Shown: one piece after another, positions 17,832 to 47,225 of the stretch | Layout: every line of letters starts with the position of its first letter | Numbering within the stretch: position 1 is the first letter of the stretch | Source: an uncultured beta proteobacterium | Lineage (GTDB): Bacteria > Pseudomonadota > Gammaproteobacteria > Burkholderiales > SG8-39 | Assembly: GCA_963827555.1 (NCBI GenBank) | Contig: CAWHBL010000029.1 | Location: 45,054-109,053 of the forward strand | Length of the DNA stretch: 64,000 nucleotides | Reading direction: 5' to 3' | The notes under the pieces: model-generated | The model's database searches: none | The model's input: only the letters and a program-made list of their open reading frames with translations | Told to the model about the DNA's origin: nothing | Position numbers and translations under genes: made by a program

Positions 17832-18680
17832 CTATTTCTCCGTCTCGACCAGGCCCTTCACGAACCACTTCTGCATGAGCACCACCACGATCGCCGGCGG
17901 CAGCATGGCGAGCATCGCGGTCGCCATCACCAGGTTCCATTCGTTCGCCGCGTCGCCGCCGACGATCATCCGCTTGATGCCGATCACCGCCGTGTACATC
18001 GATTCCTCGCTGGTGATCAGCAGCGGCCACAGGTACTGGTTCCAGCCGTAGATGAACTGGATGACGAACAGCGCCGCCATGCTGGTCTTCGACAGCGGCA
18101 CGATGACGTCCCAGAAGAAGCGCAGCGGGCCGGCGCCGTCGATGCGCGCCGCCTCCGCCAGCTCGTCGGGCACCGTGAGGAAGAACTGGCGGAACAGGAA
18201 CGTGGCGGTCGCCGAGGCGATCAGCGGCAGCGTCAGGCCGACGTAGGTGTTGAGCATTCCCAGGTCGGAGACGACCTTGAACGTCGGGATGATGCGCACC
18301 TCGACCGGCAGCATCAGCGTCACGAAGATCATCCAGAAGAAGAAGTAGCGGAACCGGAACCGGAAATAGACGATCGCGAACGACGCGATCATCGAGATCG
18401 TGATCTTGCCGACCGGGATCACGAGCGCCATCACCAGGCTGTTGAACAGCATCCTCGACACCGCCGCCTGCGAGCCCTTGGTGGAGCCGGCCGTCAGCAC
18501 CTGGGAGTAGTTCGCGACGAGCTGGTCCCCCGGCAGGAGCGGCATCGGCACCGACATGATCTGCTCGAGCGTGAGCGTCGAGGCGACGAACGTGACGTAG
18601 AGCGGGAACGCCACGGCGACGACGCCGAGGATCAGCACGCCGTGCGAGAGCACCGTGAGCAGCGGGCGGTTCTCGACCAT
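17832..18680 (-). CDS. ugpE: sn-glycerol-3-phosphate ABC transporter permease
   Basis: Last 282 codons of the 779-aa read-through ORF 17832..20171; ATG at 18680. [21 protein letters not shown] permease loop. Confidence 0.88.
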
Positions 18681-42354: not shown

Positions 42355-43119
42355 ATGGTCCGTCACCGTCGTACCGCCCGCACGGCAGCGCTCGGTTTCG
42401 CGCTGATCGCCTCGACGCCGGTGGCCGCGGCCGAAGTCCTGGTGCTGAGCGGCGGCGCCGCGCAGTCGCCGCTCAACGCGGCGCTGCCGGCGTTCGAAGC
42501 CCGCTCGGGGCACAAGGTGAAGATCGCGTTCGCGCCGGCGGGCGAGATCGCGAAGCGGGTCGCGGCCGGCGAGATCTACGACCTCCTGATCATGCCCGCG
42601 GAGAACGTCGACGCCTACGTGAAGCAGGGGAAGGTCGTCCCGGGCAGCGAGGCGCCGCTCGGCAAGGTCGGGATCGGGGTGGCGGTCAACGAGCGCGCTC
42701 CGTCGCCCGACATCGCCACGCCCGAGGCGTTCAAGCAGGCGCTGCTCGCGGCGAAGTCGGTCGTGTACATCGACCCGGCGCGCGGCACGAGCGGGAAGCA
42801 CTTCGCCGGCGTGCTGCAGCAGCTGGGGATCGCGCAGGAGGTGAACGCGAAGGCGACGCTCGGCTCCGGCGGCTACGTGGTGGCCCCGGTCGGGCGCGGC
42901 GAGATCGAGCTCGGCGTGCACCAGATCACCGAGATCCTGCCGGTGCCGGGCGTGAAGCTCGTCGGGCCGCTGCCGCCGGCGCTGCAGAAGTGGACGACCT
43001 ACACCGCGGTGGCGATGCCCGGCGCGAAATCGCCGGCAGCGGCGCGCGAGCTCGTGGCGTTCCTCACCGGCGCCGAGGCGCGGGCGCTGTTCGAGCCGAA
43101 GGGCTTTTCAGCGCCCTAG
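42355..43119 (+). CDS. ModA-like periplasmic substrate-binding protein (molybdate/tungstate/anion family)
   Basis: 254 aa. RBS GGAGGG, signal peptide, VLVLSGGAAQSPLNAALPAFEARSGHKVKIAF, GEIYDLLIMPAEN, YIDPARGTSG. Confidence 0.72.
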   Translation: MVRHRRTARTAALGFALIASTPVAAAEVLVLSGGAAQSPLNAALPAFEARSGHKVKIAFAPAGEIAKRVAAGEIYDLLIMPAENVDAYVKQGKVVPGSEAPLGKVGIGVAVNERAPSPDIATPEAFKQALLAAKSVVYIDPARGTSGKHFAGVLQQLGIAQEVNAKATLGSGGYVVAPVGRGEIELGVHQITEILPVPGVKLVGPLPPALQKWTTYTAVAMPGAKSPAAARELVAFLTGAEARALFEPKGFSAP

Positions 43120-44114
43120 AAGCCGATCCGGGACTTCCGCGCGTTGCGCGCCCCGGGGAGGTCGTCGGCCTCGATCGCGTCGTGTCCGGCGAGCTTCGCG
43201 TTGCCGAACGCGGCGAGGATCGTGCGGCGCATCTCGCGCGGGCTGGCGGCGGCGAGCCGGTCGAGCACGTCGGCCTCGAGCCGCTCGGGGAACTGCCGGC
43301 CCCAGTCGTGCGAGTTCCGGATCTCGGCGTAGATCGCCTGCGCGATCTTCATCGCGCCGTCGCGGTCGGGCGCCTCGATCGCGTAGACGTTCATCCGGTT
43401 GAGGATCGGGTCGGGGATGCGCGCGGCGTCGTTCGCGGTCGCGACCCAGAACGCGTTCGAGGCGTCGATCGGGATCTCCACGAACTCGTCGATGAACGCG
43501 CGCGCGGTGTCGGTCTCGAGCAGCGAGTAGAGCGCGCCGAGCGGGTCGTACTGCGAGTCGCCGGTCGCCTTGTCGATCTCGTCGACGACGAGCAGCGGGT
43601 TCGCGTACTGGCCGTTGAGGAAGGTCTCGAACACCTTGCCCGGCTTCGAGTTCTTCCACTGCGACGACGAGCCGGAGAGGATCCAGCCGGCGGTGAGCGA
43701 GCTCATCGAGACGAAGCCGAAGCCGGTGCCGAGGAGGTCGGCGATCTTGCGCGCGAAGTAGGTCTTGCCGATGCCCGGCTCGCCGAGGAGCAGCATCGGC
43801 GCGAGCTCGAGCGGGTCCGACGACGACGCGCACAGCGCGATCTGCTTCTTCACGTCGTCGAGCACCTCCCCGAAGTTGGGCAGCTCGTCGTAGAGATGCG
43901 CCATCGCGGGGACGCCGGCGGGCTTCACGGTGAGGCGCGTGCCGCCCGCCTTCAGCATCTTCTCGTAGGTGGTCTTGAGCGCCTCGTTCGCGCCGGCGGG
44001 GAGCTCGGCGAGCGCGCGGTCCACGACGTCGACGTCGTAGACCTCCTTGAACCCCCCGATCGGGATGTTCACCGCCTTCCGCGTCACCGCGGGCAGGTTG
44101 GTCTTCGCCGGCAT
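43116..44114 (-). CDS. AAA+ family ATPase (function unknown)
   Basis: ORF 43116..44153; preferred ATG 44114 is 8 nt after GGAGG. Walker A LLGEPGIGKTYFA, Walker B LLVVDEIDK, sensor WVATAN, PILNRM. Stop overlaps the modA-like stop on the opposite strand (CTAG). Confidence 0.78.
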   Translation of the reverse strand: MPAKTNLPAVTRKAVNIPIGGFKEVYDVDVVDRALAELPAGANEALKTTYEKMLKAGGTRLTVKPAGVPAMAHLYDELPNFGEVLDDVKKQIALCASSSDPLELAPMLLLGEPGIGKTYFARKIADLLGTGFGFVSMSSLTAGWILSGSSSQWKNSKPGKVFETFLNGQYANPLLVVDEIDKATGDSQYDPLGALYSLLETDTARAFIDEFVEIPIDASNAFWVATANDAARIPDPILNRMNVYAIEAPDRDGAMKIAQAIYAEIRNSHDWGRQFPERLEADVLDRLAAASPREMRRTILAAFGNAKLAGHDAIEADDLPGARNARKSRIGF

Positions 44115-44341
44115 CTCGCGTACCTCCATAGCCAGAGGTTCATCCCCGGCCACGCGCTCAAACTAGCATGCGGAGACCGTGACCGTTCAATGCAAAACAA
44201 AGCATGAAACGCGCCCATGCCGCGGCGCACGACGGGGAAAGGTCGCGCCCCGGCGCTGGCAGCCGCTACGCGCGCCTGCTAATCGCCGGGCTTGCCAGAT
44301 CCCCGGCCGGCGTGATTGAATCCCGCCGGACGGGCCCGACG

Positions 44342-44407
44342 ATGCATCGCACCTTCGCTTTCCGGTTCTTCTTCTTTCCCCGGCCGCTGGCGGAGGGACC
44401 CGGTTAG
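44342..44407 (+). CDS. Phe-rich leader peptide of the DAHP synthase gene
   Basis: ATG CAT CGC ACC TTC GCT TTC CGG TTC TTC TTC TTT CCC CGG CCG CTG GCG GAG GGA CCC GGT TAG = MHRTFAFRFFFFPRPLAEGPG, with 6 Phe in 9 consecutive codons. Lies 87 nt upstream of aroG and just before a terminator hairpin. Confidence 0.65.
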   Translation: MHRTFAFRFFFFPRPLAEGPG

Positions 44408-44431
44408 GCTCGACCCGACAGGATTCCGGAA

Positions 44432-44461
44432 CCGCCAGCACCGCAAGGGCTGGCGGTTTTT
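44432..44461 (+). terminator. Intrinsic terminator (attenuator) between the leader peptide and aroG
   Basis: CCGCCAGC (44432-44439), 9-nt loop, GCTGGCGG (44449-44456), then TTTTT. The 3' arm sequence GCTGGCGG also occurs at 44386-44393 inside the leader ORF, so an alternative antiterminator pairing with 44432-44439 is possible. Confidence 0.65.
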
Positions 44462-44493
44462 GCTTTCTGCAGCTCCCCGAACGAGGCAGCGAC

Positions 44494-45635
<1,142 letters not shown>

Positions 45636-45639
<4 letters not shown>

Positions 45640-47225
45640 ATCTGGCGGCGTCGGACCCCCGACGCCTCTTCTGGGGCGCGCTCGCGGTCACGCTCGCGTT
45701 CCGGTTCTGGCTCGCCTGGTGGCTCCCGGTCACCAGCGACGAGGCGTACTTCATCTACTGGGGCGAAGCGCCCGCGCTGGGCGTCTACGACCATCCGCCG
45801 ATGGTCGGGTGGCTGCTCGCCGCGCTCCTCCAGGTGTCGCACGCGCAAGTGTGGCTGCGGCTGCCGGCGATCCTCGCCCCGGCGGCGGTCGCGCTCGCCA
45901 TGCGGCCGCTCGTGCGCGAGCTCGCGCACGGCCGCCCGGACGCGCGCGCGCTCGCCGACTGGGCCGCGCTCGCCTGGCTGCTCGCGCCGATCCAGGTGGT
46001 GAACGTCCTGATCACCACCGATACGCCGCTCCTCGTCTTCTCGTTCCTGTCGATCGCCGCGTATGCGCTCGGCGTGCGGCGCGCGTCGCTCGCGCTGTGC
46101 GCGGTCGCCGGCGCCGCGCTCGGGCTCGCGTTCCTGTCGAAGTACTTCGCGGTGCTGCTCGGCCTCGCGTACCTCGTCTACGTCGCGGCGTTGCGCCGCG
46201 ACCGGCGAGCATGGCTCGAGCTTGCGGTGGTGGTCGCGTGCGCGCTGCCGTTCGGGCTCCTGAACCTCGCCTGGAACTACGAGCACTGCTGGGCTAACCT
46301 GATGTTCAACCTCTACAACCGCCACGGCGAGGCGGGGTTCGCATGGTACCGGCCGCTCGTGTTCGTCGCGCTCCTCGCCTACGTCGCCGGCCCCTTGATC
46401 CTGTTCGACCTCGCGCGCGCGCGGACCGCCGTGCGCGCGGCGGCGCGCGATCCCGCGGTGGCGTTGCTGGCAACGTGCGCCGGCCTGCCGCTCGCGCTGC
46501 TGTTCGCGCTGTCCGCGTTCCGGAGCGTGGGACTGCACTGGGTGCTCGCGTTCATGCCGCCGCTCTTCGCGGCGGCCGCGCTCGCGCTCGGACCCGCGCG
46601 CCTCGCCGCGTCGGCCCGGTTCCTCGGCGCGTTCTCGGCGCTGCACGTGCTCGCCGTCATGCTCGTCGCGGCGCTGCCGCTCGAGACCTGGCAGAGCCTG
46701 CGCAAGTACGACAGCATCGTGATGGGCACCCGTCCGGCCGAGCTCCTCGCCGCGCTCAAGCCCTACGAGGGGCGTTACGTGTTCACCGCCAGCGGTTACG
46801 CGCCGGCGGTGCTGCTCTCGTACCACGCCGCGGCGACCGGCTTCGTCGCTCAGCCCGGGTCCGGGGCGCCGTGGCGCGCGCACTACTTCCCGGTGTTCGG
46901 CCCGGCGTCTGCCCACGCGCGGCACGACGACATCCTCACCGACTTCCGCCGGCTCGACGGCGCGGACATCCTGGTCGTGCGCAAGACCGCAGCCGAAGAC
47001 GACGAGTACCGCCCGTTCTTCCGGGCGATCGAGACGCGCGAGATCGCCGTGCGCGGCGCGAAGTTCTACCTCGTGCTCGGGCAGGGGTTCGACTACGCCG
47101 CGTATCGCGACCGGGTGCTGGCGGAAGTGCGCGACCGCTACTATCGGATTCCGCGCTATCTGCCCCAGGGGCGCTGCTACTTCTGCGAGCGCTACTGGGC
47201 GACCCGGACCTGTCCGGCGCCGTAG
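45636..47225 (+). CDS. Family 39 glycosyltransferase (ArnT/PMT-like polyprenyl-phosphate-sugar-dependent transferase)
   Basis: TTG 45636 overlaps the aroG stop (TTGA); no ATG or GTG nearby. VTSDEAYFIYWGE, YDHPPMVGW, LSKYF. About 10 TM helices plus a soluble C-terminal domain ending in CYFCERYWATRTC. Confidence 0.75.

Follow-up and report, generated by a model that had tools for sequence, protein, structure and literature searches.

A predicted leader-peptide transcription attenuator upstream of aroG and its conserved relatives in Burkholderiales

The gene aroG encodes a 3-deoxy-D-arabino-heptulosonate 7-phosphate (DAHP) synthase, whose reaction is the committed entry into the shikimate pathway. 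Here we describe an element directly upstream of aroG in a 64-kb stretch of DNA (70.6% G+C; the window hereafter) from an uncultured betaproteobacterium of the order Burkholderiales. The element consists of a short open reading frame (ORF) with a run of Phe codons, followed by RNA segments that can form two alternative hairpins, one of them an intrinsic terminator. We propose, with a probability of about 85%, that it is a ribosome-mediated (leader-peptide) transcription attenuator controlling aroG. This reading is based on the anatomy of the sequence, the energetics of the competing RNA structures, conservation and covariation among relatives, and membership in a family.

The leader ORF and its competing RNA structures

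The layout of the element in the window is as follows.

44342-44407, + strand: leader peptide ORF by direct read, ATG at 44342, TAG at 44405-44407, 21 codons, MHRTFAFRFFFFPRPLAEGPG
44354-44377, + strand: regulatory codon run, six Phe codons in eight (F5, F7, F9-F12)
44352-44359, + strand: region 1, CCUUCGCU, paired with 44389-44396 (GGCGGAGG) in the free RNA according to minimum-free-energy structures
44386-44398, + strand: region 2, 5' arm of the antiterminator within the leader ORF, made up of GCUGGCGG at 44386-93 (outer) and GGGA at 44395-98 (inner)
44424-44439, + strand: region 3, made up of UUCC at 44424-27 (inner), GGAA, and CCGCCAGC at 44432-39
44449-44458, + strand: region 4, with GCTGGCGG at 44449-44456, the partner of region 3
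44430-44461, + strand: intrinsic terminator, AACCGCCAGC / loop ACCGCAAGG / GCUGGCGGUU, with the U5 tract at 44457-44461

The six Phe codons of the run are five TTC and one TTT. The copy of GCTGGCGG at 44386-44393 lies inside the leader ORF, where it spans the codons for P-L-A-E. Region 3 is common to both structures, serving as the 3' arm of the antiterminator and as the 5' arm of the terminator. The leader stop is separated from CCGCCAGC by 24 nt, and the end of TTTTT from the aroG ATG (44494) by 32 nt. A preliminary description of the element had placed the ORF, the repeat, the stem arms, the T-run and the aroG start, and its coordinates were all correct on direct read. It had also given the terminator a stem of 8 bp; the arms and the T-run stand, but the stem AACCGCCAGC/GCUGGCGGUU has 10 bp and two inner pairs. 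The pairing of region 1 with region 2 and the inner helix of the antiterminator are features beyond that description.

The computed energies were -24.1 kcal/mol for the terminator, -26.4 kcal/mol for the antiterminator and -16.8 kcal/mol for the isolated 1:2 hairpin. In the antiterminator, the pairing of 44386-93 with 44432-39 is prolonged by the inner helix between GGGA (44395-98) and UUCC (44424-27). To place the ribosome on the leader, we masked the RNA from 15 nt before to 13 nt after the first base of the A-site codon, a footprint size that is general knowledge, and folded the RNA to 44446. Placing the A-site on Phe codons 5 to 11, with transcription halted after region 3, gave the 2:3 helix a probability of about 1. 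With the A-site at the stop codon, the probability of the 2:3 helix was 0, and the terminator formed once region 4 was added. Thus, constrained folding reproduced the attenuation logic that the preliminary description had read from the alternative hairpins: an antiterminator when the ribosome stalls on the Phe codons, and a terminator when the ribosome is at the stop codon.

We infer a promoter, translation of the ORF, ribosome stalling and a response in vivo, and propose the following course of events. Transcription would begin a short distance upstream of the leader ORF. At low levels of Phe-tRNA(Phe), the ribosome would stall on the Phe codons at 44354-44374 and cover region 1, leaving region 2 (44386-98) free. 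Region 2 would then pair with region 3 (44424-39) once the latter has been made, so that the terminator would be blocked and RNA polymerase would enter aroG. When charged tRNA(Phe) is ample, the ribosome would reach the TAG at 44405 and cover region 2; region 3 would then pair with region 4 (44449-58), and transcription would end at the U5 tract (44457-61). If the leader is not translated, region 1 (44352-59) would hold region 2, and the terminator would also form.

Conservation of the aroG leader

Relatives were collected with an AroG protein scan, taking one genome per species, which gave 80 loci with 64-78% identity that were mostly labelled as Burkholderiales or its genera. In most of these genome loci, the approximately 200 nt upstream of aroG contain a short ORF with an aromatic run, a CCGCC...GGCGG terminator and a long U-run. 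The architecture of the family is an ATG, an aromatic run, a GGCGG box inside the ORF, CCGCC...GGCGG and a U-run, and the Phe run of the window aligns with the aromatic F/Y/W run of the relatives. We aligned 59 distinct leaders (the window and 58 genome relatives; alignment A1) and built a covariance model, R1, from the 58 relatives with the window excluded. Searched against the 64-kb window, R1 had a single significant match, at 44332-44466 (model positions 1-148, 40.2 bits, E 6.5e-10, such E-values being rough). R1 also added 8 genome loci outside the training set that a regular expression had missed. The preliminary description had suggested seeking the same leader upstream of aroG orthologues, and the ORF, the aromatic run and the three boxes were found to be kept in 66 of the 80 genome loci and in 59 of the 80 loci of an independent metagenome scan, in the latter always just upstream of aroG and on the same strand. 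By its sequence, the element in the window is a divergent member of a conserved Burkholderiales aroG leader family.

This conservation bears on whether the short ORF and the hairpin could be adjacent by chance. Stems are abundant in GC-rich genomes, and GCTGGCGG is present 9 times in the window. However, a run of at least 6 Phe in 9 codons occurred only once, in the leader, among the 114,381 stop-free 9-codon windows of the six reading frames, whereas, with TTY making up 1.46% of triplets, about 9e-5 such runs would be expected. The composite of a box, its complement, the box again and TTTT, with variable spacers, occurred once in the window and in none of 100 dinucleotide-preserving shuffles. 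The element is kept in 125 independent loci, and this conservation refutes chance, which we consider extremely unlikely as an explanation.

The pairing segments are the most constant parts of the alignment A1. CCGCC of region 3, GGCGG of region 4 and the U-run are invariant in all 59 leaders; in the box inside the ORF, two G are invariant, and each of the other positions, three in number, is conserved in 50 or more of the 59. The consensus terminator obtained with RNAalifold has 9 pairs, one of which is GC in 38 sequences and AU in 19. For the antiterminator, 73.6% of the alignment cells were paired, as compared with 29-50% when the partner was slid by 1-3 columns. A position flanking the box covaries over regions 2, 3 and 4, being C/G/C in 28 sequences and U/A/U in 13. 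The inner antiterminator helix was poorly placed by MAFFT (50% of cells paired), and folding of each sequence by itself was more informative. When the ribosome was placed at the last aromatic codon, CCGCC paired with the box inside the ORF in 52 of the 59 leaders; the other seven failed because a stray C-terminal aromatic residue misled the rule for the stall site. In folds of the free RNA, the terminator formed in 58 of the 59 leaders, and region 2 was held by an upstream partner in 46. This partner is specific to clades: Burkholderia-like leaders use UCCGCCA at codons 2-3, and those of Comamonadaceae use UUCUC...GAGAG.

A switch of this kind could also be real and yet be set by an RNA-binding protein, uncharged tRNA or a small ligand, with the aromatic ORF incidental to it. 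Such a switch would be compatible with the window ORF having no clear Shine-Dalgarno sequence, with a translation that is deduced, and with a peptide that matches no curated leader-peptide model. On the other hand, the start codon of the leader is ATG in 58 of the 59 leaders and GTG in one (L002), the stop codon follows the box by 4-35 nt in all leaders with a box, and the ORF always runs through region 2. The aromatic identity of the run is retained through synonymous changes between TTT and TTC and between TAT and TAC, while the non-aromatic positions are variable, and in most leaders a spacing of 8-14 nt separates the run from the box downstream. The element matched neither a riboswitch nor a T-box family of Rfam. 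We therefore regard a switch that works without translation of the ORF as improbable, and a ribosome-mediated attenuator as the preferred reading.

The leader could also act mainly in trans, through a short terminated RNA or its peptide, as has been described for rnTrpL/peTrpL in Sinorhizobium, with the control of aroG in cis being secondary. Dual-function attenuator RNAs are on record, and within clades the peptide looks conserved in its C-terminal half (PRPLAEG, PLADREG, GGREA). The RNA box accounts for the latter conservation, since clades differ in the frame in which this box is read: it encodes -GG- in the 28 leaders that read it in frame 0 and -LA- in the 28 that read it in frame 2. Because it is read in two different frames across the relatives, the box is conserved as RNA and not as peptide, and the two frames taken together with the three-way covariation with both terminator arms identify it as an RNA element. 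Furthermore, the element always lies directly upstream of aroG, and the window has a single copy. A main role in trans thus appears quite unlikely in comparison with attenuation of aroG in cis.

The 14 genome loci in which the element was not found include three Polynucleobacter, Rhodocyclaceae, Rhodocyclus, Methylophilus and Methylotenera, and also Thiodiazotropha, Psychromonas and a Cupriavidus paralogue with FLGV. In the three Polynucleobacter loci (L026, L029, L034) and in Ferrovum (L061), aroG lies about 45-55 nt from the stop codon of a gene ending in ...TVGGTA, and the leader is absent. The same gene adjoins the leader in several Comamonadaceae loci. The absence of the leader in Polynucleobacter and Ferrovum looks like a loss in streamlined genomes. 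In one metagenome locus (L138:1168-1254), the 3' part of R1 had a weak match of 26 bits at the 3' end of aroG, which is probably an ordinary terminator of similar sequence.

Codon content of the leader and feedback type of AroG

The residues encoded by the leaders total 269 Phe, 103 Tyr and 51 Trp. All 58 genome relatives have at least one Tyr codon, and 50 of the 58 have Trp, while the window has six Phe codons and no Tyr or Trp codons. Among the genome and metagenome loci, Phe-only runs are limited to the window, L083, L081 and L089. The closest AroG relatives are Phe-only, namely L083 (85% identity; leader ...ARFAFFFRPRPLAGGSS) and L081 (81%; MAREFSFSFFRFPGRWRGESG). In L084, L085, L086, L088 and L090, with 75-80% AroG identity, the leaders lack Trp and combine a single Tyr with five or six Phe; the leader of L093 has two Tyr. 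Below about 73% AroG identity, the usual mix of Phe, Tyr and Trp returns. This distribution indicates that the Phe-only run is peculiar to the small clade to which the window belongs.

We lean slightly towards a wider interpretation, in which the aroG leaders form an order-wide family with a mechanism that has gone undescribed, in most lineages sensing the three aromatic amino acids jointly, and in which the input has been retuned stepwise towards the window, from Phe/Tyr/Trp to Phe plus one Tyr and then to Phe only; a leaderless ORF in Comamonadaceae would be possible within it. If this is true, the leaders would represent a natural series of attenuator specificity evolving by codon replacement while the RNA switch is unchanged. 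The graded codon shift from F/Y/W to F only makes a testable case of how the specificity of attenuators evolves.

The Phe and Tyr codons used in the leaders end in U more often than those of the downstream genes, although the run in the window is mostly TTC. When the 59 leaders were compared with their own aroG, TTT made up 63% of the Phe codons in the leaders and 17% in aroG, and TAT made up 43% of the Tyr codons in the leaders and 20% in aroG. The sensor might be sharpened by codons that are decoded slowly.

The gene downstream of the leader in the window is the following.

44494-45639, + strand: aroG, class I-alpha DAHP synthase of Phe-sensitive type by sequence, 381 aa

Among proteins of solved structure, the best match of the window AroG was the Phe-sensitive AroG of E. 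coli (465 bits), followed by the Neisseria meningitidis DAHP synthase (439 bits) and Tyr-sensitive enzymes (about 380 bits). Its residues F-L-S-V align with F209-L-S211-V of the E. coli enzyme. Ser at the position of E. coli Ser211 is said, after the work of Hartmann and colleagues in 2003, to be found in Phe-regulated enzymes and Gly in Tyr-regulated ones. FLSV is present in the AroG of every relative that bears a leader. The only relative with FLGV is L014, the Cupriavidus necator paralogue, which also has no leader; we take its Gly to be a mark of the Tyr-sensitive type. The preliminary description had suggested that this isozyme is the Phe-inhibited one, and both the bit scores and the FLSV alignment support this suggestion. 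The enzyme is therefore likely to be feedback-inhibited by Phe, as an AroG type. If so, both the synthesis and the activity of the enzyme would answer to Phe.

In the NCBIfam search, the window AroG scored 541 bits with TIGR00034 and 552 bits with the AroG equivalog, below the cut-off of 568 for the latter. It also scored 512 bits with the model of the Trp-sensitive AroH subfamily, above the cut-off of 463. Because the AroG equivalog is missed while the AroH model is passed, automated naming of the feedback type may be ambiguous.

Promoter, known systems and neighbouring genes

Upstream of the leader ORF the window has two promoter-like boxes.

44292-44297, + strand: putative -35 hexamer TTGCCA, common to relatives L001 and L003
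44313-44321, + strand: putative extended -10 element TGaTTGAAT, at a position matching TGnTACATT / TGnTTGAAT upstream of the leader ATG in relatives

The layout TTGCCA-N18-TTGAAT is common to the window, L001 and L003, and boxes resembling a -10 element were seen in all clades. The pair of TTGCCA and TGaTTGAAT is probably the promoter of the leader, as its conserved position suggests. In the window, 20 nt separate the -10-like box from the leader ATG. In Comamonadaceae and related lineages (L004-L048 and others), a conserved extended -10 element (TGnTACATT, TAGAGT or TAAAGT) lies 10-20 nt upstream of the leader ATG and ends about 7 nt before it. In these lineages, the mRNA from which the leader ORF is translated may be leaderless or nearly so.

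Several observations weigh against attenuation in the window. A strict sigma-70 consensus scan called no promoter at the leader, the -10 element is non-canonical with T at position 2 of the hexamer, and the ORF has a deduced 5' untranslated region of about 14 nt in which no Shine-Dalgarno sequence is evident. Taken as a whole, the fold of 44330-44500 does not exceed shuffled sequences in stability (z = -0.38). A ribosome stalled at the last Phe codon (44375), with its reach of 13 nt, overlaps the first bases of region 2. The full-length RNA at equilibrium always folds into the terminator, so that antitermination must be kinetic, as in classical attenuators. The source organism was seen only in metagenome DNA runs from soil and wastewater. 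In addition, the window scored 40.2 bits with R1, as compared with 54-114 bits for the full-length matches at other loci outside the training set, L083 (44.7 bits) excepted. Moreover, where most relatives have the inner motif GAGAGG, the window has GGGA/UUCC.

The last two points raise the question of whether the copy in the window is a decaying relic of the family that has lost its regulation. Its R1 score is the lowest among the full-length matches (40 bits), and both the Tyr and Trp codons and the GAGAGG motif have been lost. Nevertheless, the ORF, the six Phe codons, all three boxes, the U tract and the strong 2:3 helix (-26.4 kcal/mol) are intact. Because the Phe-only design recurs in L083 and L081, with 81-85% AroG identity, it appears to be maintained. 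We consider decay very improbable, and retain the view that the element in the window is probably a working attenuator of aroG.

Leaders with codons for more than one amino acid are familiar from E. coli, in which the leaders of the thr and ilv operons each encode several of the amino acids that are end products of the pathway. The majority of the relatives of the window element resemble these multivalent leaders in carrying Phe, Tyr and Trp codons, whereas the copy in the window is monovalent (Phe only).

The element is also similar to the pheL-pheA leader of E. coli (Rfam Phe_leader) in its short ORF with a Phe run, its 1:2 / 2:3 / 3:4 design, its intrinsic terminator and the charging of tRNA(Phe) as its predicted signal. 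Unlike pheL, it would regulate aroG at the entry of the pathway and not pheA, it has no sequence or structure match in Rfam, and its relatives mix Phe, Tyr and Trp codons. The survey of pheL in PMC3082878 concerns Gammaproteobacteria, whereas the lineage of the window is Burkholderiales. An Rfam search around the element gave no credible match at E-values up to 10. At the gathering score, there was no match to the element in a search of the whole window and no family in 12 relatives, and an NCBIfam scan of four leader peptides matched no model. The mechanism proposed here is classical, of the pheL and trpL type, and the family is not curated in Rfam. Because it has neither an Rfam family nor an NCBIfam leader-peptide model, genome annotation pipelines miss the element. 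The alignment and the R1 model are usable for adding a curated family.

Attenuation of a DAHP synthase gene has been described in Corynebacterium glutamicum, in which a leader peptide with Phe-Tyr-Phe, aroR, attenuates aroF and responds to Phe limitation (Neshat et al. 2014, as related in PMC11802643). The aroR-aroF system is like the window element in being an aromatic-codon leader that attenuates a DAHP synthase gene. It differs in belonging to an actinobacterium and in the gene being named aroF. It is likely that aroR-aroF and the window element are of independent origin. In Acholeplasma, the uORFC-13-1 motif upstream of aroF consists of a predicted upstream ORF with conserved Phe and an adjoining terminator (PMC8632094). 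It shares with the window a predicted Phe ORF and a terminator before a DAHP synthase gene; unlike the window element it is found in Mollicutes, it is a different motif, and it is a prediction only.

Naville & Gautheret 2010 (PMC2965389, Tables S0, S1 and S8) list 22 attenuator candidates in the aroG family HBG000409, among them Acidovorax citrulli Aave_0852, whose co-oriented terminator lies 37 nt upstream. Their attenuation system is given as '? (21)' ("unknown"), and only the terminator is listed, with no leader peptide or mechanism. These premature terminators upstream of aroG are probably the same elements as the Burkholderiales aroG leaders. Thus, the terminator has already been catalogued (PMC2965389), and the leader peptide is unassigned there. 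In the literature searched, no account of an aroG leader peptide from betaproteobacteria came to light apart from a single trace, these "unknown" entries in the supplement of PMC2965389.

In E. coli, the DAHP synthase genes are under the control of TyrR and TrpR (PMC5343134). Our results suggest that, in contrast to the TyrR/TrpR control of enteric bacteria, a large and ecologically important bacterial order sets its aromatic amino-acid flux by attenuation that senses the charging of tRNA. For the metabolic engineering of Burkholderia, Paraburkholderia, Variovorax, Acidovorax and genera related to them, deletion of the leader is an obvious route to the deregulation of aroG.

The genes that flank the leader and aroG in the window are as follows.

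43116-44153, - strand: AAA ATPase gene, upstream of the leader and divergent from it
44718-47225, + strand: 835-aa ORF that overlaps aroG out of frame with it; the real gene is confined to the 3' part of this ORF (about 45651-47225) and encodes a PMT_2 glycosyltransferase

Because the upstream AAA ATPase gene is divergently transcribed, the hairpin is not the terminator of a preceding gene. Since no terminator-like site was seen between aroG and the PMT_2 glycosyltransferase gene, the two may be co-transcribed.

Some minor observations concern other loci and other parts of the window. A bump in sequencing depth at the leader of L009 (Hydrogenophaga) in run X47 was rejected as a sign of expression, and most likely reflects k-mers shared among strains. 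The RNA-labelled runs with L055 (Paraburkholderia fungorum) or L009 consisted of contigs only, with flat depth, and were uninformative. An aromatic run at 18330-18370 on the - strand was rejected as a second leader, as it lies inside a long ORF where it resembles a membrane-spanning segment of a transporter. At 44201-44221 on the - strand, 48 nt before the divergent AAA ATPase gene begins, there is a terminator-like hairpin with a T-run, which could be due to chance (0.7 such sites are expected per 2 kb) or could be a 5' element of the AAA ATPase gene.

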